Positions 30,212 to 52,254 of a DNA stretch of 64,000 bases are shown one piece after another; positions within the stretch are counted from its first letter, which is position 1, and every line of letters starts with the position of its first letter. The notes beneath the pieces were generated by a model that was not told the origin of the DNA, did not search any database, and saw nothing but the letters and a program-made list of their open reading frames with translations. A program made the translations under genes and the position numbers. The DNA lies in NCBI GenBank assembly GCA_964634935.1, contig CAZWJT010000004.1, positions 30,915 to 94,914 of the forward strand, written 5' to 3'. The stretch comes from an uncultured Planctomycetia bacterium (GTDB taxonomy: Bacteria; Omnitrophota; Gorgyraeia; Duberdicusellales; Duberdicusellaceae).

Positions 30212-31189
30212 ATGAGCGAACCAGTCCTTTCTGTTATAGTTCCAATCTACAACGAAGAAGAAGTGCTTCCTCACTTATACACACAAACAAAAACAGTCCT
30301 TGAACGGCTTGCTGTTCCATATGAAATCATTTTTATTGACGACGGAAGTAAAGACGCATCGCTCTCCCTGCTGAAAAAGTTCTCTCAGGAAAATCAGGCA
30401 GTAAAAATCATTTCTTTTTCAAGGAATTTCGGTCATCAGACAGCGCTTACGGCTGGTTTACAGTTTACTTCAGGAAAAGCCGTTGCGATTCTCGATGGAG
30501 ATCTCCAAGACCCTCCAGAGGTAATCGAGAAATTTTTTGAACAATGGAAGAACGGCTACGAAGTAGTATACGGAATACGGTTGAACAGAAAAGAGAATCC
30601 CCTGAAACGCATTCTCTATAAACTCTATTACCGCCTCTTGCGAATCCTTTCAAAAACGGTCATTCCTCTTGATAGCGGAGACTGCTGTTTAATGGACCGG
30701 ACTATTGTGGCTCTCTTGAACAAAATGCCTGAACGAAACCGCTTTATCCGTGGGCTGCGGAGCTGGGTTGGATTCCGTCAGATTGGCATTCCCTATGATC
30801 GCGATAGGAGATTTGCCGGAAAACCAAAATATACATTATTAAAATTAGTCAGGCTTGGGCTAGACGGAATAATTTCTTTTTCCGAAATCCCCTTGAAAGG
30901 ATCAATTATCATCGGCTTTTCCATCTCCACGCTGAGCGTTTTCTATTCCCTCTATATCATTCTCAATCGTCTCTTTCACGCCACCGATCGCCTCCCCGGA
31001 TGGTCAACCATCGTTGTAGCGATCACATTTCTCGGAGGTATCCAGCTTATGGTGATGGGCTTTCTCGGAGAATATGTGCTCAGAATTTATGATGAAATCA
31101 AAGGAAGGCCTCAGTATATTATCGATTCGCTTATCGGATTCAACGCCCACGCTCATGCCGAAGATATCAGTAATCATTCCCGCCCATAA
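30212..31189 (+). CDS. GT2 polyprenyl-phosphate glycosyltransferase (GtrB/CsbB/ArnC-like) with C-terminal TM anchor
   Basis: The LSVIVPIYNEEE...IIFIDDGSKD...DGDLQDPPE motifs of DPM1-like GT2 are present, with two C-terminal TM helices. Confidence 0.85.
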   Translation: MSEPVLSVIVPIYNEEEVLPHLYTQTKTVLERLAVPYEIIFIDDGSKDASLSLLKKFSQENQAVKIISFSRNFGHQTALTAGLQFTSGKAVAILDGDLQDPPEVIEKFFEQWKNGYEVVYGIRLNRKENPLKRILYKLYYRLLRILSKTVIPLDSGDCCLMDRTIVALLNKMPERNRFIRGLRSWVGFRQIGIPYDRDRRFAGKPKYTLLKLVRLGLDGIISFSEIPLKGSIIIGFSISTLSVFYSLYIILNRLFHATDRLPGWSTIVVAITFLGGIQLMVMGFLGEYVLRIYDEIKGRPQYIIDSLIGFNAHAHAEDISNHSRP

Positions 31190-32105
31190 TGCCGAACGAT
31201 ATATCCACGATTGCCTCAAATCACTCCAGAGTCAAACATTTAAAGATTTTGAGATTATCGTTATAAACGACGGATCAAATGACACAACGGCAGCCTGTGC
31301 TGCCCCGTATGCGCGCGTTATTACCACTCCGCATCGGGGAATCGGAGCCGCCCGAAACACCGGAGCACAGCATGCCCAGGGGGATATTCTTGTCTTTACC
31401 GATTCGGATGTGGTTGTGCCTTCTCGATGGCTTGAAAGAATCGAACAGACGATGCGTACACGGCAGATTGAATGTTGCGGAGGAGGATACTGTGGGAGCA
31501 TCGGAAACTCCTTTCTTGAACTCTTTGCCTATTATGAATTGGCATATCGCCGGAAAAAAATTCCGGATTTCGTCCATACGCTTGTCGCGAACAACTTTGC
31601 TTGTTCAAAAACAGTATTCTTTGCTTCTGGGGGTTTTCCGGAGAAATACACCTGCGAAGACATGCGGCTTTCTTTCCGAATCAGTCGAACCAATAAAATT
31701 TTCTGGGATAAAGAAAATTGCGTCTTCCATCACTTTAAAACAGATTTCAAGGCATACCTACGGCAACAATTCCGATTTGCAAGAGATACGGTCATCGCAT
31801 ATATCCAAGACCCTGCGATGTTCTTGGTCCAAACCCATCAAGGGAGAGGAATCTACTCTGAAGTGTGTTGCTGTTTCGGAATAGGAGCAACACTTTTTCT
31901 TAAACCCCTTTGGTCGCTGTATTTTCTTCTCTTGATTGTACTAATAAACAGCTCGTTTCTCCGCTTCCTTGCCGGACAACATATGCCCCTCAGGAAAAGT
32001 ATTTTGATTATCCTTGCCCGTGACGGCTCTGCTACGTGCGGAGTCCTTATGGGAATTCCTCTGGCCTTGTGGGAACTCGGGAGAAATCTATTGAAAAAGA
32101 AATGA
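31155..32105 (+). CDS. GT2 family glycosyltransferase fused to C-terminal polytopic membrane domain
   Basis: KISVIIPAHNAERYI...EIIVINDGSNDTT...DSD (DxD). The C-terminal ~100 aa are hydrophobic. The start was chosen at the internal Met, overlapping the upstream gene by 35 nt. Confidence 0.75.
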   Translation: MPKISVIIPAHNAERYIHDCLKSLQSQTFKDFEIIVINDGSNDTTAACAAPYARVITTPHRGIGAARNTGAQHAQGDILVFTDSDVVVPSRWLERIEQTMRTRQIECCGGGYCGSIGNSFLELFAYYELAYRRKKIPDFVHTLVANNFACSKTVFFASGGFPEKYTCEDMRLSFRISRTNKIFWDKENCVFHHFKTDFKAYLRQQFRFARDTVIAYIQDPAMFLVQTHQGRGIYSEVCCCFGIGATLFLKPLWSLYFLLLIVLINSSFLRFLAGQHMPLRKSILIILARDGSATCGVLMGIPLALWELGRNLLKKK

Positions 32106-32165
32106 AAAAAGGATATTATTGCCAATGATCCCATTATCACGTCGTCAAAAAAACGAAAGCGAACA

Positions 32166-33161
32166 ATGATCTTCGTCACAGGAGCAAATGGTCATATTGG
32201 AAGCCATATCGTAAAAAACCTTTTAGAGCATGGCTATCAGGTACGCGCATTCTGCCGTCCCGGATCACAAAGGAAAGCGCTTGAAACGATTTTACAGAAT
32301 ATCGAGATTGCCGAGGGGGATATCCTCAATCCTGTAAGTGTTGAACACGCCATGCGCGGGTGCGAAGGGGTAATCCATACCGCAACTCTCTTTTCCGTAA
32401 ATCCGTCACTCACCGAAGTAATCCTCAAAACAGCGGTTGAAGGATCTTTACATGTTGCGAAGGCGGCTTCTTTGCTCGGGGTGAAAAAATTTGTCTACAC
32501 CAGCTCCACAGCAGCGGTGGGCTCTTCTCTAAATCCTGAGGTTTTACTCGATGAAAACTCTTGGAACACACAACCTGGAAATGTCTATACTCGAGCAAAA
32601 ATAGAGGCGGAGCAAAAGCTTGTATCCTTTGCGAAGGAAAGCGGCCTGCCACTCATACGGGTGTGTCCGTCAACCGTTGTTGGACCCGGTGATTTTCGCC
32701 TCACGCCTTCAAATGCTCTCCTTAAAAAATTCATTGCACCATTTACCTTTTTCTATTTCCTCGGAGGAACGAATCTTGTGTTTGTTCGAGACATCGCTGA
32801 AGGCCACCGATTAGCCTACGAAAAAGGCAAAAGCCTTGAACGCTACATACTCTCAGGTACGAATACGACCTTCAACAATCTGACCCAACGCATTGACGCT
32901 TATCTCGGCAAGAAGAATATGCGCATATGCATGCCCTCAGCAATTCTTCTTGGAGGAGGACGAATCTGCGACTTCTTAGGCTCTATCACCGGCGCTTCTA
33001 TGCCGGCAAGTTATAAAGCCTTGAAAACACATCTTGGGTATTACTATTATTTCTCAAACTGCAAGGCGCATGAACAACTTGGGTTTACCCCTTCTACCCT
33101 AGAGCAGTTTTTACCGGAAACATTGGCCTGGATTATGAAAACTACTGCAAAGCGGCGATGA
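32166..33161 (+). CDS. NAD(P)-dependent epimerase/dehydratase (extended SDR, HpnA/DFR-like)
   Basis: A GANGHIGSHIV Rossmann motif and a YTRAK catalytic YxxxK. Confidence 0.85.
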   Translation: MIFVTGANGHIGSHIVKNLLEHGYQVRAFCRPGSQRKALETILQNIEIAEGDILNPVSVEHAMRGCEGVIHTATLFSVNPSLTEVILKTAVEGSLHVAKAASLLGVKKFVYTSSTAAVGSSLNPEVLLDENSWNTQPGNVYTRAKIEAEQKLVSFAKESGLPLIRVCPSTVVGPGDFRLTPSNALLKKFIAPFTFFYFLGGTNLVFVRDIAEGHRLAYEKGKSLERYILSGTNTTFNNLTQRIDAYLGKKNMRICMPSAILLGGGRICDFLGSITGASMPASYKALKTHLGYYYYFSNCKAHEQLGFTPSTLEQFLPETLAWIMKTTAKRR

Positions 33162-34681
33162 AAATACTGATCGTTAATCCGCCATTCTATCGACTCCAAC
33201 GCAGTTCGCTTGTGCATTACCCTCCTGGATGTTGCTACATGGCTGCAGTTCTTGAAAAAGCCGGATTCGCCTCTCATATCTATAATGCAGATTACGATCC
33301 AAGAAAAAATACAATCCTTGGAAACACCAACCATATTAACGTACGAGCGCTCACTGAACTTTCAGACGAATACGAACAGCGGCTGGCGAATGACGCAGAT
33401 CCAATCTGGCAAGAGGTGACTGCATACCTAAAATCTACAAATCCGGATGTTTTGATCATCAGTATTTTCAACACAACACTTACGGCTGGAATTAAAATCG
33501 CCCAGAAAGCAAAAATAATCAATTCATCAGTAAAAATTGTTTTTGAGGCAAGCACAAACCGCGGCCTCCACTGCGCGCTTGATCCTGCAGTGAGCGTCGA
33601 TCCAAAAAATATGGACTTTGCCCTGCGAAAAGAGCCAGAAGAAACCATAGTTGAACTTGTCCGCGCTCTTACTGAAAATGCCACTGATTTTTCTTCAATC
33701 CAGGGACTGAGTTGGAAAAATAACCAAGGAATACTCATCCATAATCCAGATAGACCGCCACTACAGAATCTGGATCTCCTCCCATTTCCCGCACGCCACC
33801 TACTTGATGGACATGAAAAAATGCCTCCCCACACATTCCAAGGTATTTATGGCTCTCGGGGATGTCCCTTTGATTGTATTTTTTGCGGTTGCCATACAAG
33901 CTGGGGTTATATGCCTCGATTGCGTTCAGCAAAAAACATGGTCGATGAGATTGCATTCGTACACAAGCGCTTCAGAACTACTTATTTTTATATTTGCGAT
34001 GACATTTTTTTTATTCAAAAAGATAGGGCAAGGGAATTCTGCGAGCTGATACTTGAGAAAAAACTTCCCGTTTATTGGTCGGCACAGACCAGAGCAGAGA
34101 TGGCTGATGAAAAAACCCTGCGGCTCATGAAACAAGCAGGAGGACAGCACATTGCCGTCGGAGTAGAAGTAGGCAACCCCCATGTCCGCGAACTTATCCG
34201 CAAAGGCAACACCGTTGACGATGTGCGTCGATGTGCTCGTCTCATCAAAAAAACCGGGCTACACATGGTTGCTTTTTGCATGATTGGACTACCTTGGGAA
34301 GGAGAAGAAGAAATACAAGATACAGTGCGCCTGATTAAAGAAATTGACCCGTATATCGTTTATCCTTACATGCCTACCCCGGCAAGCGGAACCGAATTAG
34401 CAAAAATCCTTACCGAAAAAAACCCCATAGGGTTCGCCCAATATCGCGATCGTTGTCACATCAACACCTCTGCAACGCTTGCCGAACGGCTCAGCCCGGA
34501 ACTCAAGAAAAAAGTAATCGAGAAAGCTCTTATGGAGTTTGTTAAAATCAACAGGAAAAATTTACTTTTTGATCTGATGCGGCGGCCACAATTCTATATC
34601 GCCCTGGCGCATGATATGCGTTTTTTCACACATCCAAAGTTTCTTTTCTATTATTTCCGCGACTATTGCAAACCGTCTTAA
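33158..34681 (+). CDS. B12-binding domain radical SAM protein (class B)
   Basis: 507 aa with an N-terminal B12-binding-like domain and a GSRGCPFDCIFCG CX3CX2C motif. A 4-nt overlap with the upstream epimerase. Confidence 0.85.
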   Translation: MKILIVNPPFYRLQRSSLVHYPPGCCYMAAVLEKAGFASHIYNADYDPRKNTILGNTNHINVRALTELSDEYEQRLANDADPIWQEVTAYLKSTNPDVLIISIFNTTLTAGIKIAQKAKIINSSVKIVFEASTNRGLHCALDPAVSVDPKNMDFALRKEPEETIVELVRALTENATDFSSIQGLSWKNNQGILIHNPDRPPLQNLDLLPFPARHLLDGHEKMPPHTFQGIYGSRGCPFDCIFCGCHTSWGYMPRLRSAKNMVDEIAFVHKRFRTTYFYICDDIFFIQKDRAREFCELILEKKLPVYWSAQTRAEMADEKTLRLMKQAGGQHIAVGVEVGNPHVRELIRKGNTVDDVRRCARLIKKTGLHMVAFCMIGLPWEGEEEIQDTVRLIKEIDPYIVYPYMPTPASGTELAKILTEKNPIGFAQYRDRCHINTSATLAERLSPELKKKVIEKALMEFVKINRKNLLFDLMRRPQFYIALAHDMRFFTHPKFLFYYFRDYCKPS

Positions 34682-34685
34682 AGGT

Positions 34686-35720
34686 ATGAGCCTAGTACAG
34701 AAAGCTTCATTTCTCGCATCTCTTTGCTTTGCCCGCGCTCTGCACCGGAGAATTCCTTTAACTGTTATTTTTAATATTACGGATCACTGTAATGCCAATT
34801 GCGGTTATTGTTACGCGCGCTATTTTCAAAGAAATCTCCCGGAACTCGGAATTCAAGAGATAAATACAATCCTCTCTGAATTGAGAACGATGGGATGCAA
34901 ACGGATAAGCCTTGGAGGAGGAGAGCCGCTTCTGCGCAAAGACCTTGCCAGAATTATTGAAGCAATAAAGAAAAATGGGATGGAATGCATTATAAATTCA
35001 AACGGAATACTTGTCCCAGAGAAAATAGAGATATTGCGCCGGGTAAACGCGCTCTGCATCAGCCTTGACGGCCCAGAAAATGTACATGATACATACCGCG
35101 GGAAAGGAAGCTTTCAAAAAGTACTCCTTGCGATTGAAACTGCTTCCGCGCATAGAATACCCCTTCATACCAACACTGTCCTCCACCATAACAATATCAA
35201 CTCGATCGACTTTATCCTTACACTCGCAAAAAAATATGGTTTTTTTGCTGAATTTAATATCGCGATAGCACCACTTTCTGAAACGAACAAGGCTGCTCCC
35301 TACAAAGCCTCTGAAGAAGAAATCCGCACAACAATGCGAAAACTCATTCAATACAAAAAAGCAGGTCACAACATTCTTTTTTCCAAAAAAGCATTTGAAC
35401 TCGCCTTAGCTTGGCCAGACTATGGCAAAGAATCGCTGCCTAGCATACCAAACACTCAATATCCGGCATGCGCCGCGGGAAGTTATTTTTGTTTCATTGA
35501 TACTGATGGAGGAGTATACGCGTGCCCGCATTTAATCGGAAAAGTTCAACCGCTTAAAGCACAAGATGGATTTCGACAGGCCTTCGAAAAACTAGCGCGG
35601 CCTTCGTGCTCAGCTTGTTATCAAGTATACCACAACGAGTTTAATCTACTCTTTAATCTTGATATTGAAGTAATCGCTAATTACGGGCTTAATACAATCT
35701 TGCGGTTGTTTCGAAAATAA
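34686..35720 (+). CDS. Radical SAM/SPASM-domain protein, paralog 1 (subfamily A)
   Basis: CNANCGYC (CX3CX2C) near the N-terminus, the GGGEPLLRKD motif, and a C-terminal Cys cluster (CAAGSYFCFIDTDGGVYACPHL...CSACYQ) of SPASM/twitch type. Confidence 0.85.
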   Translation: MSLVQKASFLASLCFARALHRRIPLTVIFNITDHCNANCGYCYARYFQRNLPELGIQEINTILSELRTMGCKRISLGGGEPLLRKDLARIIEAIKKNGMECIINSNGILVPEKIEILRRVNALCISLDGPENVHDTYRGKGSFQKVLLAIETASAHRIPLHTNTVLHHNNINSIDFILTLAKKYGFFAEFNIAIAPLSETNKAAPYKASEEEIRTTMRKLIQYKKAGHNILFSKKAFELALAWPDYGKESLPSIPNTQYPACAAGSYFCFIDTDGGVYACPHLIGKVQPLKAQDGFRQAFEKLARPSCSACYQVYHNEFNLLFNLDIEVIANYGLNTILRLFRK

Positions 35721-35725
35721 ATAGC

Positions 35726-36754
35726 ATGAGCATCCAGAACCGTTTCGCATTCATGGCGCGTTTGATCAAAGACCGGATTTCCGGAAAGGCAACACCGCTC
35801 GTTGTGGTGCTCAATACTACATTTCGCTGTAATTTACGTTGCGGGTATTGTTATGGTCAATACTTCCAAAGAACTGACGAAGATTTTACCACCGTTGAAC
35901 TTCTGGGACTGATCGACGACCTGAGTAAATTAGGAACTCGTTCGATCACCTTGGGGGGTGGTGAGCCTCTTCTGCGCCAAGATATTGGCCAAATTATCGA
36001 TAGGATAAAACAACACGGCATCGAATGCGGGATGAACACAAACGGCATACTGATTCCTCAACGGCTAGACATGTTGAGGAAAATTGATATGGTAACAATT
36101 TCAATTGATGGACCAAAGGAATTGAACGACCGCAACAGAGGAGACGGATCCTTCGAAAAAATCATGGCCGGCTTAGAAGCGGCCCTGGCTGCAGATATAA
36201 AAGTACACACAACTACAGTGCTTACAAAACATAACTACCAGGCAATCGATTGGATTGTTGACATGGCCAGGAGAAAAAAAATTCAGGCGGAATTTAATTT
36301 CTTGTTTCACCAGAATCGGGGAAAACATGAATCCGACACTTTCATGGCCGAGGAGACATCTCTCAGAAAAGCAGCTGAACGTATCGTCGAACTCAAGAAA
36401 AAAGGAGCGCCTATTCTATTTTCAAAGAAGATCTACCAATGGGTGGCGCGCTGGCCTGATTATAAAAAGAGGATCATCCAACAAAAATCCAGATTGAAAA
36501 CCAGACTGTGCAATGCGGGAAGATTTATGATGTTCATTGATGCTGACGGAAAAGTCTATCCGTGCGTCCAGCTGATTGACGTATTTCCTGCCTTAGAATT
36601 TCGTTCCGCTGGAATCGAGAAAGCATGGCGTCACACCCATATCCATAATTGCTATGCTTGTTATTTTCCATGTTTTAATGAATTCAATGCGGTTTTTAAC
36701 CTAGATCCGGAAATCCTCTTAGAACAAATAATGAGTACCTTACAAAATCATTGA
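35726..36754 (+). CDS. Radical SAM/SPASM-domain protein, paralog 2 (subfamily A)
   Basis: CNLRCGYC, GGGEPLLRQD, and a C-terminal CNAGRF...DADGKVYPC...CYACYFPC. It is clearly paralogous to 34686-35720. Confidence 0.85.
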   Translation: MSIQNRFAFMARLIKDRISGKATPLVVVLNTTFRCNLRCGYCYGQYFQRTDEDFTTVELLGLIDDLSKLGTRSITLGGGEPLLRQDIGQIIDRIKQHGIECGMNTNGILIPQRLDMLRKIDMVTISIDGPKELNDRNRGDGSFEKIMAGLEAALAADIKVHTTTVLTKHNYQAIDWIVDMARRKKIQAEFNFLFHQNRGKHESDTFMAEETSLRKAAERIVELKKKGAPILFSKKIYQWVARWPDYKKRIIQQKSRLKTRLCNAGRFMMFIDADGKVYPCVQLIDVFPALEFRSAGIEKAWRHTHIHNCYACYFPCFNEFNAVFNLDPEILLEQIMSTLQNH

Positions 36755-37807
36755 ATGGGAAGCCTATTTGAAAAAAATCGATTCTTCTTAGCCTTGCTGA
36801 AAGGGCGCGTCTTAAAACAATCAATCCCTCTCCTGGTATTTTTTACTATCACTCATCGCTGTAACGGATCATGCCCATATTGTTTCGGGGCATATGAAAA
36901 TCCGGGAGGAAAAAATGCTGGTTTTGAGCTGAATACCGAACAAATTTTTTGCCTTATTGATCAGATGGCGGCGGCTGGAACGCAGCGCATTGGAATCAGC
37001 GGAGGAGAACCGCTTTTGCGCGACGATATCGGGAAAATAATCGATTATGCGGCTCAAAAAAAGATTCACTGCGGCCTCAACACCAACGGGTATCTCATAC
37101 CTCAGAAAATATCCGAACTTGCTAAACTAAGCAATATCACGATCAGCCTCGATGGCGACATGTTTGAACATGAACAAAATCGAGGAAAAGGCACGTATGA
37201 AAAAACAATTCTCGCGATTGAGCGGGTAAAACGCCAGAAAATTCCCCTCCATGTAAGCATGGTACTTACTCGGCACAATATGAACAGTATCCCTTTTATT
37301 CTGGAGCGTGCAAGAAAAACCGGATTCCTGGTACAAATTAGCCCGCTCTATCCTTGCGTACTCCCCGAAAAGAACAATAATTCTCTACAGCTAAGCGATG
37401 AACAACTTCGCCGAATACTCCAGCAAATTATAACTTATAAGCGCAAGGGATACCCTGTTTTTTACTCACAGACGACATACTCTCGGATTCTTTCTTGGCC
37501 TGATCTCCAGAAAGACCGCTACCTTGGAGAAAAACCGAGGTTTCCCCATGCTCCGTGCGTCATGGGAAAATACGCCTGCCTTTTAGATGCAAACGGCGAT
37601 GTCTACCCATGCGCTCAAATTCAAGGCTTAACCCCAAAAAATGCCTTAAGTATAGGGTTTAAACGAGCTTTCCAGCACATCAATAAACATCTTTGTCGCG
37701 CCTGCTCGTGGGCTTGTTACAATGAGTTGAATCTCTTGGCGCAGTTAAATCCCGAAGTAGTCATGAACACGATTAGCAATATTTTGTTTGACAAAAATCA
37801 TGCCTGA
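36755..37807 (+). CDS. Radical SAM/SPASM-domain protein, paralog 3 (subfamily A)
   Basis: CNGSCPYC, SGGEPLLRDD, and a C-terminal CVMGKYACLLDANGDVYPC...CRACSWAC. Confidence 0.85.
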   Translation: MGSLFEKNRFFLALLKGRVLKQSIPLLVFFTITHRCNGSCPYCFGAYENPGGKNAGFELNTEQIFCLIDQMAAAGTQRIGISGGEPLLRDDIGKIIDYAAQKKIHCGLNTNGYLIPQKISELAKLSNITISLDGDMFEHEQNRGKGTYEKTILAIERVKRQKIPLHVSMVLTRHNMNSIPFILERARKTGFLVQISPLYPCVLPEKNNNSLQLSDEQLRRILQQIITYKRKGYPVFYSQTTYSRILSWPDLQKDRYLGEKPRFPHAPCVMGKYACLLDANGDVYPCAQIQGLTPKNALSIGFKRAFQHINKHLCRACSWACYNELNLLAQLNPEVVMNTISNILFDKNHA

Positions 37808-38891
37808 AATCCTTTGTAGCTCTTGTAAGCAGAAAAAACTATCGGTAATCACTTCGTGCGCACAGCGCCGATGCTCCTTTCATCCACGGGGAAAAACTTT
37901 CTCCATGGAAAAACTCGCTCCTGACCGGTTATGTCTCGAAGCTTTTTTCCGGCTGTATCCATACTGCTTCGCGGCACTCTACCAAAAAGAATTTACGCCA
38001 TATCGAGTGCACTGCCCAAAAGTAGAAAATGGGGTAACGTTTCAGGTTTTCCGCAAGCCACAAAGATTCACGCGAAGGCTTATGAATTATATAAAAACTA
38101 TCATAGCAAAATTGTATCCACTTGATATTATTCGCTACCGCATTTTCATTGAAGTCCTCTCACAACAACACGATTGCCTTGAAAACCATGCGCCTGGGCA
38201 ACAATTTGAGCTGAACTTGAACCAGAAAACTACGGAAGCTTGCCCTGCTGCATTTCACAATGTCTTCCCGAGTTTTTTCGCCGGAACCTGCACGGAAAAC
38301 ACCTTGCAGCCCATAACCAGTGCGTGCCCGGACCACTGTTATGATATACAACTTACGCTCAATCCGAAAATAAATAAAAATCTGCTTCCGTCCGGTTCTC
38401 TGGAGTGTGCGGCTTATGAACATTTCACACTTGCCATACCATTCCCGGAAGAATCACACCAGAAATTTCCGCACACAAAACTTCAAACGATTTCTGAACT
38501 TCTGGGAGAAATAAGATGCCTAGGGGCATTTTGGGCTATTTTCCCATACTATCTAACCCTCTTAGAAGACGGAGAAATGACAGGATTCTATAGTAAACAT
38601 AGACATTCCGCATATGTTCAATGTCCAAGCATCGAACATAAGGTTGAAATGCTCATTGAAAAAAAAGAAGGAATTTACGTTTTACGAATCGGAAAAACAA
38701 AAAACCCGTGTCCAAAAGGACTCGTTCCCGGAATGGAAATCGCCTTAAGCGATGAAAAAAATAAATTAGTTCTACAAACCCTGCATTCAATTGTGCCGTA
38801 CGCGCTAGCGCTATCAAATCTATCGCTGTCCAACATAAACATTTACTCGCCAGACCCAAAAAAACAGTTTATAATAGAAATCAAAAAATAA
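37788..38891 (+). CDS. Cys-rich hypothetical protein (about 16 Cys; N-terminal zinc-ribbon-like CxxC-x10-Cx4C), embedded in the radical SAM array
   Basis: A 367-aa ORF translationally coupled on both sides (a 20-nt overlap upstream and TAATG downstream). No recognisable enzymatic motifs. Confidence 0.55.
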   Translation: MTKIMPEILCSSCKQKKLSVITSCAQRRCSFHPRGKTFSMEKLAPDRLCLEAFFRLYPYCFAALYQKEFTPYRVHCPKVENGVTFQVFRKPQRFTRRLMNYIKTIIAKLYPLDIIRYRIFIEVLSQQHDCLENHAPGQQFELNLNQKTTEACPAAFHNVFPSFFAGTCTENTLQPITSACPDHCYDIQLTLNPKINKNLLPSGSLECAAYEHFTLAIPFPEESHQKFPHTKLQTISELLGEIRCLGAFWAIFPYYLTLLEDGEMTGFYSKHRHSAYVQCPSIEHKVEMLIEKKEGIYVLRIGKTKNPCPKGLVPGMEIALSDEKNKLVLQTLHSIVPYALALSNLSLSNINIYSPDPKKQFIIEIKK

Positions 38892-39952
38892 TGTACACAG
38901 CGACAAAAAAAATATCGAAAGGAATCAATCTTCTGGCCACTTTCTCTTGGGCAAAACTTCAGAAGAAGCACATCCCGCTCGTTCTTTATTTCTTAGTGAC
39001 CGAACGCTGCAACTGCCGTTGTCCTTATTGCTGGATACGCCGAGATACAGAAACACTTTCTCATGAGATGTCAACTGAAACAATTCTCAAGGTAATCGAT
39101 GAATTCTACGCAATCGGCACCCGCTATATGAGCATCCTGGGTGGAGAACCGCTTTTACGGAAAGACCTCGATGTGATCGTCGAACACCTGAATAAACTCA
39201 ATATGATGAACGATATCGTTACGAACGGAACGCTCATCGAACCTCAGCTGGAAACACTGAAAAAATTTGATCTTGTTTGTGTCAGTCTCGAAGGCAATCA
39301 AGAAACCCATGATCACGACCGGGGACAAGGTACCCACGCTCAGGTTATGAAAGGCATCGAACTTCTCGCAAAACATAAAATTCGATTTCGCTTTAATACA
39401 ACCGTGACTCAGCACACTGTACATTCGTTTCCGTATGTCTTAGAGTTAGCTAAAAAATACAATGCTGCAATTTCAGTAGGCATCGCGGTGGTATCGAGCG
39501 GACAGGAAAAAGAAATTATCCCGACTGTTGAAATGATAATAGATTTCTGGAAACAAGTCAGAACTTTCAAGACTCAAGGATACCCAATTGAGAAATCAGT
39601 ACGGGCAATTGACGGTTTGATAAAAAACGCGCAATTTTTTTTGGAAAGTTCTATTTACGAGAAAGATATTCCACCTGTGCACGATTACAATCCCTGCCTT
39701 TTTGGAAAATATCTCGGTTATCTTGGCGCTGACGGAACAATATTTCCTTGTCCTCACCCGGATTTATTTGGGAAGAAAGAATTCCATTCTAATATCTTCA
39801 CCTATGGAACAAAAACCGCATGGAAAAATCTTGTCCAAAATACACCCTGCTCATTCTGCAATCTCCTGCTCGGTTGCGAAATAAATAATTTTCTCAATTT
39901 AAATGCACGAAGCGTCCTGGAGAGTGCCCGTGCGTACTTTTTTGACTGGTAA
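38891..39952 (+). CDS. Radical SAM/SPASM-domain protein, paralog 4 (subfamily B)
   Basis: ERCNCRCPYC, LGGEPLLRKD, VTNGTLI, DHDRGQGT, and a C-terminal CLFGKYLGYLGADGTIFPCPHP...CSFCNLLLGC. Confidence 0.85.
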   Translation: MYTATKKISKGINLLATFSWAKLQKKHIPLVLYFLVTERCNCRCPYCWIRRDTETLSHEMSTETILKVIDEFYAIGTRYMSILGGEPLLRKDLDVIVEHLNKLNMMNDIVTNGTLIEPQLETLKKFDLVCVSLEGNQETHDHDRGQGTHAQVMKGIELLAKHKIRFRFNTTVTQHTVHSFPYVLELAKKYNAAISVGIAVVSSGQEKEIIPTVEMIIDFWKQVRTFKTQGYPIEKSVRAIDGLIKNAQFFLESSIYEKDIPPVHDYNPCLFGKYLGYLGADGTIFPCPHPDLFGKKEFHSNIFTYGTKTAWKNLVQNTPCSFCNLLLGCEINNFLNLNARSVLESARAYFFDW

Positions 39953-39956
39953 AATT

Positions 39957-41006
39957 ATGCACAAATTTTCTAAAGGATTGAAATTTCTTTTTGCTTTCCT
40001 TTGGGCAAAACTGCGAAAAAAAGATATACCGCTTGTTGTCTCCTTTTTAATAACCGAAAAATGCAATCTGCACTGCCCGTATTGCTTCATCCGTTTTCAA
40101 GATTTTACAACTCCGGAACTCTCAACAGAATCACTCATAAAGATTATCGACGAATTCTATGCCCTGGGCATGCGCTATATCAGCATCGTAGGAGGTGAGC
40201 CCCTCTTACGCAAAGATTTAGAAGCTATTGTTACATATCTTCATAGATTAAATATCTTTACTGAACTTGTGACAAATGGAACGCTCATCGCCACGCAGCT
40301 GAACGCATTAAAAAAGATCGATTCGGTTTGCATCAGCCTGGAGGCAGACGAACAACATCATGACCATGACAGAGGAAAAGGCACATACGCCCAGATTATT
40401 CGCAATCTAAGCATCCTGCAGGAAAACAACATTCATTTTCGCTTTAATGCCACCGTGTCTCTCCATACAATCAATGCCTTTCCGCATGTCGCAGAGCTCG
40501 CAAAACAATATCGCACTTCGCTTACGGTAAACCTGGCTATTCTTGATCATAATAAATCCGAAGCCAGGCCAGACGGAAAAGAAATTCGCAGATTCTGGGA
40601 AAACGTGCGCCGTTTAAAAAAAGCAGGGTATCCGATCGAGAAATCGTACCGAACAATCGATTCACTGATCAAAAATGCCGATTTGTTTGCCCAGGGAAAA
40701 CGCTACAAAGAAAAACCGCAAGGAATCGTAGATTTTCATCGTTGTTTTTATGGGAGATTGTTTTGCTATATCGGAGCAGACGGGGCTCTATTTCCCTGTT
40801 GCCATCCTGAGCTTTACGGCAAAAAAGATTTTCAGGCAAATATTTTTGAGTATGGAGCAAAGCATGCTTGGGAAAAACTCGTCGCCCAACGCGCATGTGA
40901 ATGCTGCAATCTTACTATTGGATGCGAGATGAATAACTTTCTTGACTTAAGCATTCCAGCAATCTGGGAAAGTTTCACTGCATTTCTGTTTCACCGAAAA
41001 CAATGA
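39957..41006 (+). CDS. Radical SAM/SPASM-domain protein, paralog 5 (subfamily B)
   Basis: EKCNLHCPYC, VGGEPLLRKD, VTNGTLI, DHDRGKGT, and a C-terminal CFYGRLFCYIGADGALFPCCHP...CECCNLTIGC. It is closely paralogous to 38891-39952. Confidence 0.85.
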   Translation: MHKFSKGLKFLFAFLWAKLRKKDIPLVVSFLITEKCNLHCPYCFIRFQDFTTPELSTESLIKIIDEFYALGMRYISIVGGEPLLRKDLEAIVTYLHRLNIFTELVTNGTLIATQLNALKKIDSVCISLEADEQHHDHDRGKGTYAQIIRNLSILQENNIHFRFNATVSLHTINAFPHVAELAKQYRTSLTVNLAILDHNKSEARPDGKEIRRFWENVRRLKKAGYPIEKSYRTIDSLIKNADLFAQGKRYKEKPQGIVDFHRCFYGRLFCYIGADGALFPCCHPELYGKKDFQANIFEYGAKHAWEKLVAQRACECCNLTIGCEMNNFLDLSIPAIWESFTAFLFHRKQ

Positions 41007-41764
41007 AACGATCACAACGCGAAAAAATAATTTCTCCCGAATATTTACCAGGACAAATAATCTGGTCATGTAAGTTTTTCTGGGACAGCGCATGTCTCCT
41101 TATCCGCCAACCATCAAGGGCTTCTCTCGAATATATGCAACTTGCTGCGCGGGTTATTCCGAAATACACAATGCTTAGCCTACCGCGCTTAATGAATCTC
41201 GTAAATTTGATAAAAACCATTAACAAGAAAAACATTGAAGGTGATGTTGTCGAATGTGGCACGTGGAATGGAGGAGCAGCAGCAGTAATGGCAGCGTATC
41301 AAGAAAAAACACTCAATACTACCTTACCACCGCGACATTTCTGGCTTTTTGATTCATTTCAAGGTCTACCCAAACCTACGGCAAATGACGGAGCACTCCT
41401 TACTGATAACCATATTCAAGGATTATTTAAAGGAAATCCGGAGTATATAAAAAGATTGTTCTTGCAACTGCGGATTCCATCAGAACATCTCCATATCATT
41501 CCTGGATGGTTTCAGCAAACTATACCCGAAGTAAGAAATAGGAAAATAGCGCTGCTCCATATTGATGCCGATCTCTATGATTCGATTTTTAATGTCTTGG
41601 AACAACTTTATGATACAATAGTGCCGCGAGGATTCTGTGTGTGCGACGACTATTCCTGGAGCGGAGGGAAAAAAGCGATTGACACATTCCTCGAAAAAAG
41701 GGGACTGGGGAATCAAGAAAAGTTCTTTATTGACGGCGCAATTTATTTTCAAAAACCAGAATAA
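41003..41764 (+). CDS. TylF/MycF-family class I SAM-dependent O-methyltransferase (macrocin-O-methyltransferase-like)
   Basis: A VECGTWNGG SAM-binding motif and IDADLYDS are typical of TylF-type sugar O-methyltransferases. A 4-nt overlap with the upstream gene. Confidence 0.8.
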   Translation: MKRSQREKIISPEYLPGQIIWSCKFFWDSACLLIRQPSRASLEYMQLAARVIPKYTMLSLPRLMNLVNLIKTINKKNIEGDVVECGTWNGGAAAVMAAYQEKTLNTTLPPRHFWLFDSFQGLPKPTANDGALLTDNHIQGLFKGNPEYIKRLFLQLRIPSEHLHIIPGWFQQTIPEVRNRKIALLHIDADLYDSIFNVLEQLYDTIVPRGFCVCDDYSWSGGKKAIDTFLEKRGLGNQEKFFIDGAIYFQKPE

Positions 41765-42474
41765 TGAAAACCACTCTACTCATCCCAACGCTGAATGAAA
41801 TTATCGGAATGAAAAAAATCATGCCTACGATTTCAAAGAATTGGGTAGACCAGATTATTATTTTAGATGGCGGATCAACCGACGGAACAATTGAATACGC
41901 ACAAAAAGAAGGATACACATGCATTGTCCAGAAAAAACCAGGATTGCGGAATGGATACCTGGAAGCGTGGCCGTACATTCAAGGTGATATTGTGATTACT
42001 TTCAGTCCTGACGGTAATTCACTGAGTAGCCGCATCCCCGAATTAATCGAAAAAATGAAAGAGGGGTACGATATGGTCATTGTTTCCCGGTACGCCAACG
42101 GCGCCAAAAGTTATGATGACGACGCAATTACGAGATTCGGCAATTGGATGTTTACAACAACAATCAACCTTCTCTTTAAAGCTCATTACACGGATGCAAT
42201 GGTAATCTTTCGAGCTTATAAGAAAAATCTTGTATACGCACTAGGCCTTGATCAGGAACAGACATACTCACCAGAAAAATTGTTTGCCACATGGATAAGC
42301 TGGGAGCCAATTCTTTCTGTCCGTTGCGCCAAAAAAAGACTACACGTAGGGGAAATCCCCGGCGATGAACCTCCACGAATCGGAGGAGAAAGAAAACTCC
42401 AGGTTCTGCGCTGGGGAGGTGCCTATTTTACGCAAATTCTCAGAGAATTGTTTTTTTGGAAAAATACACAATGA
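41764..42474 (+). CDS. GT2 family glycosyltransferase (short, DPM1-like)
   Basis: LLIPTLNE...IIILDGGSTDGT... It is paralogous to 54016-54684. Confidence 0.8.
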   Translation: MKTTLLIPTLNEIIGMKKIMPTISKNWVDQIIILDGGSTDGTIEYAQKEGYTCIVQKKPGLRNGYLEAWPYIQGDIVITFSPDGNSLSSRIPELIEKMKEGYDMVIVSRYANGAKSYDDDAITRFGNWMFTTTINLLFKAHYTDAMVIFRAYKKNLVYALGLDQEQTYSPEKLFATWISWEPILSVRCAKKRLHVGEIPGDEPPRIGGERKLQVLRWGGAYFTQILRELFFWKNTQ

Positions 42475-43478
42475 ATCATTCTTGCGACAGTTCAGAAAGT
42501 TTTCCCACAGAGATAGCCGAAGATATTCTTCTGCGGCTTTATACTATCATGATGCAGATTCGGCTTGTTGAATTAAGGATAGAAGAAGAATATCCAAAAA
42601 ATCAGATAAAAACCCCTATACACCTATGCATCGGCCAAGAAGCAACCGCAGCAGGAATCTGTATCCATCTCACCAAAGACGATTATCTCTTTAGCAACCA
42701 TCGCGGACACGGCCATTACTTGGCTAAAGGCGGTAATTTGGCAGCGATGATAGCCGAACTTTACTGCAAAAAGACCGGTTGTGCTGAATCGCGAGGAGGC
42801 TCGATGCACCTCATCGATACTGACTGCGGAATAATGGGTTCGTCCTCAATTGTAGCGGGAAATATCCCTATTGCTACCGGAGCAGCTTTAACCTCTCGCT
42901 TGAAACAACAAGGCAAAATCTCTGTTGTTTTTTTTGGCGATGGGGCTTCCGAGGAAGGGGTATTCTTTGAAAGTATGAATTTCGCGGCGCTTAAGAAATT
43001 GCCGATTCTTTTTGTATGCGAAAATAACTTTTATTCAGTTTGCTCACACCAGAGTGCCCGTCAAGCGAACCTCAATATTGCCCAACGCGCTAACGCTTTT
43101 GGGATCAAGAACTTACGGATCGACGCCTCAAATGTGCTTACGGTTTATCAGCATGCGCAAGAAATTATCGCATCAATGCGCGCGCTGAACGAACCATTCT
43201 TGCTTGAATGTCAAGCGTATCGGTTCCGCGGCCATGCTGGAGAAAATGACCCACTGAAAGATGAGTATCGGAACCTCATGGAATGGAAAACCTGGATGCA
43301 AAAAGACCCTGTGGAAAATTTTGAGATCCTGCTTACCCAACAAAACATACTGACTCCAGAAAAAAAAGATTCTCTCATCCAAACGTTACGCCAGCAGATT
43401 GATGCAGCATTTGTCTTTGCCCAAACATCCCCGCTCCCAAAAAGCGAAGAACTATTTGATAATCTTTACCACCCATAA
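42471..43478 (+). CDS. Thiamine-diphosphate-dependent dehydrogenase E1 component, alpha subunit (stand-alone, sugar-locus type)
   Basis: HLCIGQEA...HRGHGHYLAKGG...GSMHL...GIMGSSSIVAGNIPIATG...FFGDGASEEGVFFESMNFA...FVCENNFYS are E1-alpha TPP-binding motifs. There are no E2/E3 genes nearby. Confidence 0.9.
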   Translation: MNHSCDSSESFPTEIAEDILLRLYTIMMQIRLVELRIEEEYPKNQIKTPIHLCIGQEATAAGICIHLTKDDYLFSNHRGHGHYLAKGGNLAAMIAELYCKKTGCAESRGGSMHLIDTDCGIMGSSSIVAGNIPIATGAALTSRLKQQGKISVVFFGDGASEEGVFFESMNFAALKKLPILFVCENNFYSVCSHQSARQANLNIAQRANAFGIKNLRIDASNVLTVYQHAQEIIASMRALNEPFLLECQAYRFRGHAGENDPLKDEYRNLMEWKTWMQKDPVENFEILLTQQNILTPEKKDSLIQTLRQQIDAAFVFAQTSPLPKSEELFDNLYHP

Positions 43479-43486
43479 GAAAAACT

Positions 43487-44530
43487 ATGCCTTGGACAAA
43501 ATTCCTGATTGAAAAAGAAGAGCCGGGATATGATGAGAATCCGAAGATTACCGACCGTAAATTTACCGCTCCCCAGGCAATTTGCGAAACACTCAGTCAA
43601 GCCCTGGCGCTTGATCCAAATATTTTTGTCATGGGTCAAGGAGTCGATGATCCAACCGGAATGTTTGGCACCACCTGCGGATTACAGAAAAGATTCGGGC
43701 CTGAGCGGGTCTTTGATACACCGCTTTCTGAAAATGCCTTGACGGGAATCGCTACAGGCGCTGCGCTTACGGGATTAAAACCGATTTATCTACATAATCG
43801 ACCTGATTTTCTTCTCCTTGCCATGGATCAAATCATAAATCACGCGGCCAAACTCAGCTATATGTTTGCGGGAAAATTAAAAGTCCCCTTGGTAATTATG
43901 GCCACGATCGGTAAGGGTTGGGGTTCAGGACCCCAACATTCCCAATCACTCCACGGTTTATTTCTGCACATCCCTGGCCTAAAATTAGTAATGCCATCCA
44001 CCGCCTATGACGCCAAAGGCCTCTTGGTTTCAAGCATCGCTGACAACAACCCTGTTCTTTTTATCGAGCACCGCTGGCTTTTCAAGCACACCAGCTACGT
44101 CCCCGAAGAACTCTATGCCATACCATTTGGAAAAGGACTCGTTCGCCGCTTCGGAAACGATGTGACAATAATTGGAATCTCATACATGGTAATTGAAGCG
44201 CTGCGCGCGGCTGAAGAGTTGGCTAAACAAGGAATCGAGGCCGAAGTTCTAGATCCACGAACACTCAAACCTCTTGATGAAGAAATTATTCTGCAATCAA
44301 TAAAAAAAACTGGACGCTTGATTATCGTTGATACTGACTGGCTGACCGGAGGAACAGCTTCAGAAATTGCAGCGTTTGCCGCAGAAAAAGCGTTCAATTT
44401 TCTCAAAGCTCCAGTGAAGCGGATAGCCTGGCCCGATATCCCTGTGCCGAGCGGTCATACTTTGGAAGAAGCGTTCTATCCCACGGTGCAGACGATAGTC
44501 CAAAACGTTAAAGAAATAATCCAATTGTAG
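43487..44530 (+). CDS. Thiamine-diphosphate-dependent dehydrogenase E1 component, beta subunit (transketolase-like pyrimidine-binding + C-terminal domain)
   Basis: 347 aa with a typical E1-beta layout (VMGQGVDDPTGMFGTT...; C-terminal TK_C-like). Confidence 0.9.
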   Translation: MPWTKFLIEKEEPGYDENPKITDRKFTAPQAICETLSQALALDPNIFVMGQGVDDPTGMFGTTCGLQKRFGPERVFDTPLSENALTGIATGAALTGLKPIYLHNRPDFLLLAMDQIINHAAKLSYMFAGKLKVPLVIMATIGKGWGSGPQHSQSLHGLFLHIPGLKLVMPSTAYDAKGLLVSSIADNNPVLFIEHRWLFKHTSYVPEELYAIPFGKGLVRRFGNDVTIIGISYMVIEALRAAEELAKQGIEAEVLDPRTLKPLDEEIILQSIKKTGRLIIVDTDWLTGGTASEIAAFAAEKAFNFLKAPVKRIAWPDIPVPSGHTLEEAFYPTVQTIVQNVKEIIQL

Positions 44531-44537
44531 TGACAAT

Positions 44538-45470
44538 ATGAAGAAAGAAGCCCGCATCCTTATTATTTCAACACTTTCATTGATCGGCAAAAACTTTGTT
44601 CCCTTCTTGAAAGAAAGAGGATTTAAAAATGTTTTTCTTCTGTCTGCGGAAAATTTTGACTTAACGAGAACGGATCGAGTAGAAAATTTTCTCAAAAAGC
44701 TAAAACCAAGGTATATTTTTCTTACGCACCTCTATTCAGGCGGTATCAAGCTCAACAGCGAACATCCAGCTTCTCTGATATATCAAAATCTACAGATACA
44801 AAATGCAGTCATCCATGGAGCGCACAAAACCGGAGTAGAACGCTTGCTCTACTGGGCGAGCTCTTGCGTTTATCCCAGAAACGCAAAACAGCCAATGACA
44901 GAAATGCAAATTTGTACTGGAAAGGTCGAAGATTCAAATGAAGCTTACGCAATCGCGAAATTAGCCGGTATCGCTCTCTGCAAAGCCTACCATCAAGAAT
45001 ACCGGAAACATTTTTTTACGCTCATTCCAGCGACGGTGTATGGCCCTGCTGATGATTTCAACCCCCATACCAGTCATGTTATCGCATCATTCATCCAGAG
45101 ATTCCATCAAGCAAAAAAGCAAAACCTGAGTACAGTAATCCTCTGGGGTAGCGGAAAACCTAGACGTGAGTTCATCTACATCGATGACGTCTTAGAAGCT
45201 TCCCTTTTACTTTTGAATCGCTACACACAAAACATTCCAATAAACGTTGGGGTTTCTCGGGATGTCTCGATCTATGATCTCGCAATGCTTGTGCGTAAAG
45301 TTGTAGGTTTTACCGGCAGCGTCGCTTTTGACCAAACCAAGCCTGACGGCGTCTTCCGTAAATTGCTTTCGAGTAAACGAATAAGAGCGCTTGGCTGGAA
45401 ACCGCGCATCTCTCTTTTAGAAGGCATACAAAAAACATACCGATGGTATAAAAACCAAGTGGAGGAGTAA
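44538..45470 (+). CDS. GDP-L-fucose synthase (Fcl)-like 3,5-epimerase/4-reductase; N-terminal Gly-rich NADP motif degenerate (SxxSxxG)
   Basis: It aligns with Fcl over its full length (SSCVYP, EAYAIAKLAG, YGPADDFNPHTSHVI, LWGSGKPRREFIYIDD, KPDGVFRKLL), and the catalytic Ser/Tyr/Lys are retained. The GxxGxxG is replaced by STLSLIG. Confidence 0.8.
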   Translation: MKKEARILIISTLSLIGKNFVPFLKERGFKNVFLLSAENFDLTRTDRVENFLKKLKPRYIFLTHLYSGGIKLNSEHPASLIYQNLQIQNAVIHGAHKTGVERLLYWASSCVYPRNAKQPMTEMQICTGKVEDSNEAYAIAKLAGIALCKAYHQEYRKHFFTLIPATVYGPADDFNPHTSHVIASFIQRFHQAKKQNLSTVILWGSGKPRREFIYIDDVLEASLLLLNRYTQNIPINVGVSRDVSIYDLAMLVRKVVGFTGSVAFDQTKPDGVFRKLLSSKRIRALGWKPRISLLEGIQKTYRWYKNQVEE

Positions 45471-45473
45471 ACT

Positions 45474-46406
45474 ATGAAAATCTTGGTAACCGGAGCAGCT
45501 GGCTATATTGGTTCGGTGCTGGTGGGAGAACTCCTGCGGCATAATCATAGCGTAATCGCGCTCGATAATTTCATGTATAATCAGATATCGCTGCTCGAAT
45601 ATTGCAATCAGACTCAGCTTGAAATTGTTCGCGGAGACGCAAGAGATAAAAATTTGATGGAACGTTTATTAAAAAATACCGATGCAATTTTCCCTTTGGC
45701 TTGCCTAACCGGAGCCCCGCTGTGCCAACGGTATCCATGGGAAGCACAAACCATCATCGTTGACGCGGTTCGCATGCTCCTTGAGTTACGCAGTGCGCAA
45801 CAGATAATTATATTTCCAACTACAAACAGCGGATACGGGATCGGACAAAAAGGAATCCCTTGCACAGAAGAAAGCGCCCTACATCCTATATCGTTGTATG
45901 CTCAGCTTAAAGTCGATGTTGAGAAAATTCTCCTGGCTGCGGGAAATTGTATTACGCTCCGATTGGCAACAGCCTTCGGTATCAGCCCCCGTATGCGGCT
46001 GGATCTCCTCGTAAATGACTTAACCTACAAAGCAGTCACAGATCGGTACGTTATTCTTTTTGAGCCGCATTTCAAAAGAAATTTCATCCACGTGCGCGAT
46101 ATCGCGAAAGCTTTTTTACATGGACTTACGCATTTCGAGCAAATGAAAAATCAATCCTATAATGTTGGGCTTAGTGACACGAATCTAAGCAAATGGGAAC
46201 TCTGCGCAGAAATAAAGAAACAACTCCCTGGTTTTATCTTTCTCGAAGCGCCAATTGGAGAAGATCCAGATAAACGGGATTATATCGTAAGCAATGAGAA
46301 GATAGAACAAACTGGATTTAAACCGGATTTTTCACTCCAAGATGGAATCCGGGAGTTGATCAAGGGATATCAAGTGATTCGGCGCAATCAATTTTCAAAC
46401 GTCTAA
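45474..46406 (+). CDS. NAD-dependent epimerase/dehydratase (extended SDR)
   Basis: A TGAAGYIGS Rossmann motif and a YAQLK YxxxK. Confidence 0.85.
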   Translation: MKILVTGAAGYIGSVLVGELLRHNHSVIALDNFMYNQISLLEYCNQTQLEIVRGDARDKNLMERLLKNTDAIFPLACLTGAPLCQRYPWEAQTIIVDAVRMLLELRSAQQIIIFPTTNSGYGIGQKGIPCTEESALHPISLYAQLKVDVEKILLAAGNCITLRLATAFGISPRMRLDLLVNDLTYKAVTDRYVILFEPHFKRNFIHVRDIAKAFLHGLTHFEQMKNQSYNVGLSDTNLSKWELCAEIKKQLPGFIFLEAPIGEDPDKRDYIVSNEKIEQTGFKPDFSLQDGIRELIKGYQVIRRNQFSNV

Positions 46407-46415
46407 GGAGGCTAC

Positions 46416-47402: not shown

Positions 47403-47407
47403 CGCCG

Positions 47408-48118
47408 ATGCCCTTAGACTATACTTCAGCAGATGTGGTTATTCTCTGCGGAGGAAGAGGGAAACGCCTCGGGCCACTTACGAGTAAAATCCCTAAACCA
47501 CTTCTCAGAATAAAACAGCGCCCGTTCCTTGAAATACTCATTGGCTCGCTCTACAAGCAAGGATTCCGGCGTTTTATCCTCTGCACGGGATATAAAAAAG
47601 AACTGCTGAAAAAATATTTCCAATCTCATCACGCTTATGCTCCATACATCTTTTTTTCTGAAGAAAAAAAGCCGCTTGGGACAGGAGGAGCGATATACCA
47701 CGCCCGAAAACTCATTTTGAGTGAAGCATTTTTTGTGTTGAATGGAGACAGCCTCTGCCGATACCCTCTCAAAAAAATATTTTCCTTCCATCGCCGTAAG
47801 CATGCCGATGTTTCGATTCTCTTGGCGAAGCAAAAAGAGCAGGCTGAATGCGGATTCGCGAAGCTTGATCACAACTCAAAAATTGTCACTTTTTCGGAGA
47901 AAGAAACGATCCGGACCAAAACCTATATCAATACAGGAGTTTATGTATTCAGCGGTAAAATTTTCCAGAGAGTTCCCTGGCGAGGATCATTTTCATTAGA
48001 ATATGATCTTTTCCCGAAACTCTGCAGCCATGGTAAGCTTTATGGATTGCCTAGTGTATGTACTTTCCTGGATATCGGAACCCCCCAGCGCCTTCAGAAA
48101 GCTCAGCGTTCTTTATAG
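47408..48118 (+). CDS. Sugar-phosphate nucleotidyltransferase, D-glycero-D-manno-heptose 1-phosphate guanylyltransferase (HddC)-like
   Basis: ILCGGRGKRLGPLTSKIPKPLL is a nucleotidyltransferase G-rich loop, and 236 aa is a typical HddC size. Confidence 0.75.
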   Translation: MPLDYTSADVVILCGGRGKRLGPLTSKIPKPLLRIKQRPFLEILIGSLYKQGFRRFILCTGYKKELLKKYFQSHHAYAPYIFFSEEKKPLGTGGAIYHARKLILSEAFFVLNGDSLCRYPLKKIFSFHRRKHADVSILLAKQKEQAECGFAKLDHNSKIVTFSEKETIRTKTYINTGVYVFSGKIFQRVPWRGSFSLEYDLFPKLCSHGKLYGLPSVCTFLDIGTPQRLQKAQRSL

Positions 48119-48201
48119 TCTTCCCGGAAAGTTTCAATAACGGTATGAAAAAAACCAAAACGGTGGTATACTTTATAGAATAACCCGGAGAATAAAAGTA
48201 A

Positions 48202-51326: not shown

Positions 51327-51340
51327 TTTCTATCCACTCG

Positions 51341-52252: not shown

Positions 52253-52254
52253 CC

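Follow-up and report, generated by a model that had tools for sequence, protein, structure and literature searches.

A cysteine-rich gene inside a radical SAM array

The 64,000-nucleotide (nt) stretch of contig CAZWJT010000004.1 analysed here (the window) comes from a member of Candidatus Omnitrophota, a phylum understood as largely anaerobic; a PPDK gene on this stretch matches metagenome-assembled genomes of Candidatus Omnitrophota at 78% identity. Five paralogous radical S-adenosylmethionine (SAM) genes, r1–r5, lie at 34686–41006, and a single gene that does not encode a radical SAM protein stands among them. Its product, which we call T4, is a Cys-rich, four-repeat protein of the TIGR04076 family. 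The mechanically longest version of its open reading frame (ORF) begins at a TTG (37788; 367 aa), and an ATG at 37800 gives a product of 363 aa. As this shorter form is identical to the database protein P0001, the ATG was taken as the likelier start. With this start, the first 8 nt of T4 fall within the preceding radical SAM gene, which stops at a TGA (37805–37807). At the other end, the TAA stop of T4 (38889–38891) has its last base in common with the start codon of the following radical SAM gene (ATG at 38891; TAATG). These overlaps suggest that T4 may be translationally coupled to both of its neighbours. A first-pass annotation of this DNA had described a Cys-rich ORF with about 16 Cys and radical SAM genes overlapping both of its ends, and the sequence and the ORF list bear this out: T4 contains 16 Cys (4.4%) and 13 His, with the highest Cys share among the 29 tabulated operon proteins (range 0.6–3.8%). 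Given homologs at 23–42% identity, 263 profile matches and conserved synteny, we regard the gene as real rather than a chance reading frame.

T4 is a four-repeat member of TIGR04076

T4 scores 65.4 bits (curated cutoff 33) against the NCBIfam hidden Markov model (HMM) TIGR04076, with E=5e-18 and three matched stretches, the best of which (T4 aa 13–85, in repeat R1) covers model positions 5–88 of 91. Because both defining features were found, the score and a domain of about 90 aa with the Cys pattern, T4 is a member of this known, uncharacterised family, and the earlier remark that no enzymatic motif is recognisable has to be amended accordingly. The same model, and no other, matched 45/45 diverse four-repeat relatives. 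A Pfam scan of T4 returned no family at E<=1 and no Fer4, and the profile searches gave no match to a housekeeping family.

Each repeat follows one pattern: a strand, C-x2-3-[H/Y]-x2-G, a strand, a C-x-x-A-F...P helix, a strand, C-P and a final strand. All six pairs of repeats align with one another in hhalign (97–99% probability, E 1e-10 to 7e-17), as do the R1R2 half and the R3R4 half (99.5%, E=6e-23). As the two halves align, T4 is a duplicated two-repeat unit. In one distant locus (L012, 5514–6746), two abutting genes with two repeats each (210 and 199 aa) replace the single four-repeat one, and roughly 18 proteins of about 370 aa seem to be (R1R2)x2 instead of R1R2R3R4; on these grounds, we consider the two-repeat unit to be the evolutionary building block.

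The family is small. When 1.84 billion cluster representatives were searched exhaustively with a profile, only 263 relatives came up at E<=1e-3, with length peaks at about 350–400 aa (four repeats) and about 180–215 aa (two repeats) and a few proteins at 520–656 aa. Searching a large database with a single-repeat profile gave no matches, and the 45-sequence profile added only P0099. Genome and metagenome scans with the close-subfamily alignment had no matches; a second metagenome scan yielded two further loci. Public names for the relatives are "hypothetical protein" or "uncharacterized repeat protein (TIGR04076 family)", the latter a JGI name. We found no Pfam entry and no solved structure for TIGR04076, and the literature searched mentions it speculatively, without data.

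Conserved cysteines are lost and kept in sets

In an alignment of 45 proteins that are 20–41% identical to T4, the invariant and near-invariant columns are nearly all Cys or Cys-Pro (C25, C72, C126, C148, C176, C203, C240, C275 and C304), and the columns of C148 and C176 hold Cys throughout (100% of 74 relatives). The string CSSC-x10-C-x4-C, read by the first-pass annotation as an N-terminal knuckle, is present (C6, C9, C20 and C25), but the knuckle itself is not conserved, as C9 is Cys in 3% and C20 in 7% of the 74 relatives.

We compared the presence and absence of Cys across 53 four-repeat relatives. The Cys co-vary as four sets, each bridging two paired repeats, and T4 has three of these (A1, B1 and A2; Table 1). 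A2 is universal, and B1 is missing solely from N-terminally truncated entries. The A1 triad is all-or-none in 50/53 relatives. The remaining set, B2, had been predicted from the ligand-set model ahead of its test and is all-or-none in 41/53 (all three Cys in 24, none in 17); T4 does without it, as does about a third of the family (17/53). Individual columns agree with this grouping, with phi(C45,C126)=0.95 and C25 uncorrelated with A1, and column permutations reached the observed A1 and B2 counts in 0/10,000 cases (a statistic that ignores phylogeny). The half-versus-half alignment pairs C6 with C203, C45 with C240, C72 with C275, and C126 with C304. Because the members of a set are lost in concert, unlike disulfides or Cys-acceptor cross-links, the sets are best regarded as putative metal sites. 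Judged by their conservation, A1, B1 and A2 would bind metal centres, most likely iron-sulfur (Fe-S) clusters.

Some other assignments were considered and set aside. One metal site per repeat was ruled out by the correlated loss, which shows sets that span paired repeats, and loss of a ligand in R3 was ruled out by the invariant C203, which supplies it. The "zinc-ribbon-like" label had to be dropped: neither the CSSC knuckle nor any CxxC pair is conserved among the relatives, and there was no zinc-ribbon match in Pfam or NCBIfam.

Predicted structure

With an input of four sequences, AlphaFold2 gave a mean predicted local distance difference test score (pLDDT) of 62; with the 45-sequence alignment, it reached 89.8, with a predicted template modelling score (pTM) of 0.91 and all five models at or above 88. 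Structure prediction, one of the checks that had been proposed for this ORF, thus returned a confidently folded four-repeat model in which every repeat is modelled as beta-beta-alpha-beta-beta. Searches of PDB sequences with the single T4 protein and two profiles found no relatives. The model, although confident, has no counterpart in the PDB, and no similarity of T4 to a known enzyme was found by sequence or fold.

Conserved neighbourhood and domain fusions

There were 13 informative contexts, every one retrieved through T4, so co-occurrence is scored from the T4 side. In 11/13, a gene of the r type (a Twitch-like radical SAM protein of about 350 aa, from the family of r1–r5) is adjacent to T4 or one short-chain dehydrogenase/reductase (SDR) gene away, and the remaining 2/13 contigs end on the relevant side. 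The coding regions of T4 and the neighbouring radical SAM gene often overlap or abut. Three close homologs (P0002, P0003 and P0004; 39–42% identical) sit in orthologous clusters, whose other members are also well conserved by blastp: 52% identity for Epi1, 57–59% for the r4-type gene, 58% for the SPASM radical SAM protein, 58% for TK-N, 69% for SDR2 and 63% for GT2, a family 2 glycosyltransferase. In all three, the 3' end of T4 overlaps the r4-type gene. T4 was kept in the recovered orthologous clusters; the case named as refuting in the first-pass annotation, its absence from otherwise conserved copies of the array, was not encountered among them. The P0002 cluster (L001/L002), the only one with its upstream side recovered, has one radical SAM gene per subtype; the five-gene array in the window therefore looks like a lineage-specific expansion (r1–r3 and r4–r5). 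Among distant relatives (23–31% identity), an r-type gene lies directly upstream in L012, L014, L095, L096 and L097, and an SDR gene stands between the two in L008. Genes for GT2, the GT-C enzyme PMT_2 and a Wzm/Wzt exporter recur in the contexts of the relatives.

The family also occurs in fusions. Seven representative proteins are SDR::T4, and one has the arrangement T::DUF362::Fer4. Proteins combining DUF362 with a 4Fe-4S ferredoxin also adjoin the radical SAM/T4 pair in two loci (L014, 1003–2136; L096, 2336–3487), the one case of their fusion to TIGR04076 repeats being P0035 (L011, 18–1982). The literature searched held nothing linking DUF362 with radical SAM enzymes. As a separate observation, a PurH-like protein (AICARFT/IMPCHase plus MGS-like) is encoded directly downstream of T4 in two unrelated contexts (L008, 11084–12622; L095, 3756–4802).

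The flanking enzymes had been taken for SPASM proteins, and this did not survive closer inspection. Pfam SPASM scores are 13.4 bits for r1, 19.8 for r2 and 18.1 for r5 (cutoff 21.5), with no match in r3 or r4, and r1–r5 fail the seven-Cys motif: beside CxxxCxxC, they share only four invariant C-terminal Cys (C-x17-C-x27-C-x2-C) with a Twitch-like spacing. Given these four Cys and the sub-cutoff scores, we consider r1–r5 to be Twitch-like rather than classical SPASM peptide maturases. Their nearest solved relatives, MoaA, SkfB, PqqE and BlsE, are remote (E~1e-11). A separate gene (50205–51326) does exceed the Pfam SPASM cutoff, at 32.7 bits.

T4 and the array belong to a single-strand operon of 30 genes (Table 1), in which genes overlap or are separated by gaps of <=9 nt, save three gaps of 60–101 nt. 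The operon carries four GT2 genes, four NAD-epimerases/dehydratases and two SDRs, together with a GHMP kinase, a nucleotidyltransferase, a DegT aminotransferase, a TylF-type methyltransferase and two split thiamine pyrophosphate (TPP)-dependent enzymes. Eight of its genes encode radical SAM proteins (r1–r5, two B12-binding and one SPASM). Apart from two unannotated proteins of 759 and 523 aa, every gene tested in it encodes a sugar/glycan or a radical SAM enzyme. No gene for a maturation protease, a precursor or an exporter was among those tested, RiPP (ribosomally synthesized and post-translationally modified peptide) recognition element (RRE) domains not being specifically searched. From the sugar/glycan content and the lack of room for precursor peptides, we conclude that the operon is not a RiPP cluster.

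Table 1 T4, its repeats and Cys sets, and neighbouring features of the window
Feature	Position (nt)	Strand	Basis or remark
T4 coding sequence (363 aa)	37800..38891	+	ORF list; identity to P0001; TIGR04076 65.4 bits vs cutoff 33; AlphaFold2
Repeat R1 (aa 12-92): C25-x2-H28, C45 (CLEAF), C72-P	37833..38075	+	Repeat alignment; hhalign R1 vs R3 E=7e-17
Repeat R2 (aa 112-192): C126, C148-P-A-A-F, C176-P-D178-H179	38133..38375	+	Repeat alignment; Cys conservation
Repeat R3 (aa 205-293): C240, C275-P, after invariant linker C203	38412..38678	+	Repeat alignment; half-vs-half hhalign
Repeat R4 (aa 291-363): C304-P-K-G; without second and third Cys, so without site B2	38670..38888	+	Repeat alignment
Cys set A1: C6, C45, C72, C126			Present in T4
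Cys set B1: C25 (H28 in 81%), C148, C176 (D178 in 91%)			Present in T4
Cys set A2: C203, C240, C275, C304			Present in T4
Cys set B2: first Cys of R3, second and third Cys of R4			Absent in T4
Radical SAM paralogs r1, r2, r3 (subfamily A), Twitch-like	34686..37807	+	Pfam Radical_SAM; SPASM below cutoff or absent
Radical SAM paralogs r4, r5 (subfamily B)	38891..41006	+	r4 ortholog (57-59% identical) directly after T4 in all three close-homolog clusters
Epi1 (NAD-dependent epimerase, extended SDR) and B12-binding radical SAM gene	32166..34681	+	Epi1 ortholog directly upstream of T4 in P0002 and P0003 clusters
Classical SDR overlapping SPASM radical SAM gene	49367..51326	+	SDR/T4/SPASM radical SAM trio contiguous or fused in distant relatives L008 and L010
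Glycan/sugar operon of 30 genes with T4	30212..60874	+	Pfam/NCBIfam content; intergenic distances

A proposed accessory metal protein for radical sugar chemistry

Our leading explanation, to which we assign a probability of roughly 45%, is that T4, a cytoplasmic protein with metal centres (probably Fe-S), acts as an accessory subunit or hub and passes electrons on in the sugar chemistry of radical SAM enzymes and SDRs. That the ORF could be an Fe-S or zinc accessory protein was one option in the first-pass annotation, and it fits the co-varying Cys sets, the folded repeats, the fusions to enzymes and ferredoxin and the constant radical SAM neighbours. We infer the binding of metal, its identity, the formation of a complex and the relay of electrons from this combination. 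In outline, T4 would work in stoichiometric amounts with the Twitch-like radical SAM enzymes beside it and with an SDR-type dehydrogenase, as their accessory subunit or hub within a pathway that may tailor a nucleotide- or polyprenyl-linked sugar for a surface glycan. It might accept or return the electron that is moved in a radical SAM sugar oxidation or epimerisation or, alternatively, supply the electron for SAM cleavage; the resulting keto-sugar would then be processed by an SDR or an aminotransferase.

Several points weigh against this explanation. T4 has no ferredoxin-type CxxCxxC motif and no Pfam Fer4 domain, its ligand Cys being 20–55 residues apart, and many relatives do without A1 and B2. 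The permutation test is blind to phylogeny, and the contexts were collected via T4 only. The domain fused to T4 is an SDR and never a radical SAM domain, which a simple model of a ferredoxin for radical SAM enzymes does not predict, and an SDR transfers hydride and, without a flavin, cannot feed single electrons. Since the fusions involve SDRs rather than radical SAM domains, a structural zinc scaffold and a catalytic Fe-S protein both retain some weight.

As a structural-zinc adaptor, T4 would use Zn(II) to stabilise a pseudo-symmetric repeat platform that gathers the radical SAM enzyme and the SDR or presents the sugar, with no redox role. Zinc would suit sets of three or four Cys that have a His or an Asp close by, T4 has no classical Fe-S motif, the SDR fusions suit a scaffold, and the pseudo-symmetric repeat fold was modelled with high confidence. 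We nevertheless judge this unlikely, as structural zinc usually uses paired CxxC knuckles, of which none is conserved in T4; in addition, nearly all ligand Cys precede Pro and the family is found with Fer4 and radical SAM proteins, although these last points are only suggestive.

T4 might instead be an enzyme itself. B1, with H28 and D178, would then carry a metal or cluster whose open coordination position binds the sugar, and T4 would, like IspH, NadA or aconitase-type Fe-S enzymes, catalyse a dehydration or a reductive step immediately ahead of the SDR or following it. The three Cys of B1 with the Asp (91%) and the His (81%) occur in every full-length relative, and seven relatives are fused to an SDR; in IspH and NadA, the cluster ligands likewise come from different repeats. 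This is rather improbable in our view, since T4 resembles no known enzyme by sequence or fold and it is linked more strongly to radical SAM genes than to the SDR.

That T4 is instead a protein substrate of the flanking radical SAM enzymes, which would cross-link or convert its Cys as is seen with QhpC/QhpD, with sactipeptides or with targets of anaerobic sulfatase maturases, we consider very improbable, in spite of its tight linkage to SPASM/Twitch-group genes, its many invariant Cys, some beside an invariant Asp (CPD), and the precedents for protein substrates of radical SAM enzymes: T4 is confidently folded and conserved along its whole length without leader/core organisation or a variable core, its Cys disappear three or four together and not in Cys-acceptor pairs, fusions join relatives to SDR and DUF362-Fer4 enzymes, clusters with one radical SAM gene per subtype keep four repeats, the number of repeats does not follow the copy number of radical SAM genes, the glycan operon has neither protease or exporter genes nor room for extra peptides, and the radical SAM proteins are nearest, all remotely, to MoaA, SkfB, PqqE and BlsE. 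The first-pass idea of a substrate or scaffold modified by SPASM enzymes is therefore not favoured for this folded, 363-aa product of a sugar operon.

Further observations on the operon and the window

Two separate split TPP-dependent enzymes are encoded in the operon, an E1 alpha/beta-type pair and a transketolase N/C-type pair (42456–44530 and 51428–53217). The second of these (transketolase N/C-type) is conserved in the orthologous cluster L003. The split pairs suggest two-carbon (ketol or acyl) transfer onto a sugar. In L096, the PMT_2 GT-C enzyme that follows T4 suggests decoration of a glycan in a manner dependent on polyprenyl-phosphate-sugar. At the end of the operon are two proteins without a family, of 759 aa (57108–59387) and 523 aa (59303–60874); the former had only a weak YfhO-like (GT-C) match. 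At their mechanical starts, the second GT2 gene overlaps the first by 116 nt (31074–31189) and the gene at 59303 runs 85 nt into the preceding one. The starts of both are probably further downstream than listed.

The operon is preceded, 73 nt before its first gene, by a tRNA-Arg(CCT) gene (30066–30138, +), and tRNA genes are common integration sites of islands. The idea of a genomic-island origin on compositional grounds was set aside, the GC content being flat (0.41–0.45) across the operon boundary. Elsewhere in the window, the ORF at 19997–21211 (+) has a sub-threshold match to TIGR03287, "methanogenesis marker 16 metalloprotein" (123.6 bits vs cutoff 364), in what is a bacterial (Omnitrophota) genome. 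A preprint on Omnitrophota genomes contains no description of the present cluster.

Relation to known systems and implications

The closest likeness is to TIGR04076 itself, as each T4 repeat aligns to nearly the whole 91-position model and has the same type of Cys motif. The model, however, describes one domain of about 90 aa, whereas T4 strings four of them in tandem and its paired repeats share the ligand sets. Dedicated electron donors and Cys-ligated metal proteins are known from Dph3/Kti11, which serves Dph1-Dph2, and from the ferredoxin or flavodoxin of classical radical SAM enzymes. Their likeness to T4 lies in the proposed role only: T4 has no sequence or fold similarity to donors of the Dph3/Kti11 type, is far larger and multi-site, and is fused to SDRs rather than reductases, its redox role being predicted. 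In IspH and NadA, tandem homologous alpha/beta repeats each give Cys to a common site, much as the putative sites of T4 would be built, one of which has only three Cys. T4 has no detectable homology to them, and its repeats are beta-beta-alpha-beta-beta and form several putative sites instead of one central cluster. With RiPP precursors and SPASM substrates such as sactipeptides and QhpC, T4 shares being Cys-rich and encoded beside SPASM/Twitch-group genes, but it consists of 363 aa of folded repeats with no leader or core, has no protease or exporter nearby, occurs in enzyme fusions and stands in a glycan context. The N-terminus of T4 happens to hold a knuckle-like CSSC-x10-C-x4-C, as in zinc ribbons and knuckles; its conserved Cys are far apart and not CxxC pairs.

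Neither the four-repeat, ligand-swapped architecture nor the radical SAM/SDR glycan module appeared in the literature searched. A broader proposal is that T4 represents a new fold class of multi-centre Fe-S protein, with Cys swapped between paired repeats, that is an obligate partner of a new Twitch radical SAM/SDR clade in the radical tailoring (oxidation, epimerisation or deoxygenation) of surface-glycan sugars in uncultivated anaerobes, such as Omnitrophota and Patescibacteria. We put this forward tentatively and hold it to be doubtful as a whole.

The analysis gives TIGR04076 a concrete context: within glycan clusters, it constantly accompanies SDRs and one specific clade of Twitch-like radical SAM enzymes. 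It also assigns predicted ligands to three or four putative metal sites. If the sites hold structural zinc only, the family would still have a new repeat fold, of narrower interest. If T4 is indeed an Fe-S relay or hub, radical SAM enzymology would gain a new accessory component, and the variable surface-polysaccharide cassettes of Omnitrophota and other uncultivated phyla would become candidates for radical tailoring of carbohydrates.

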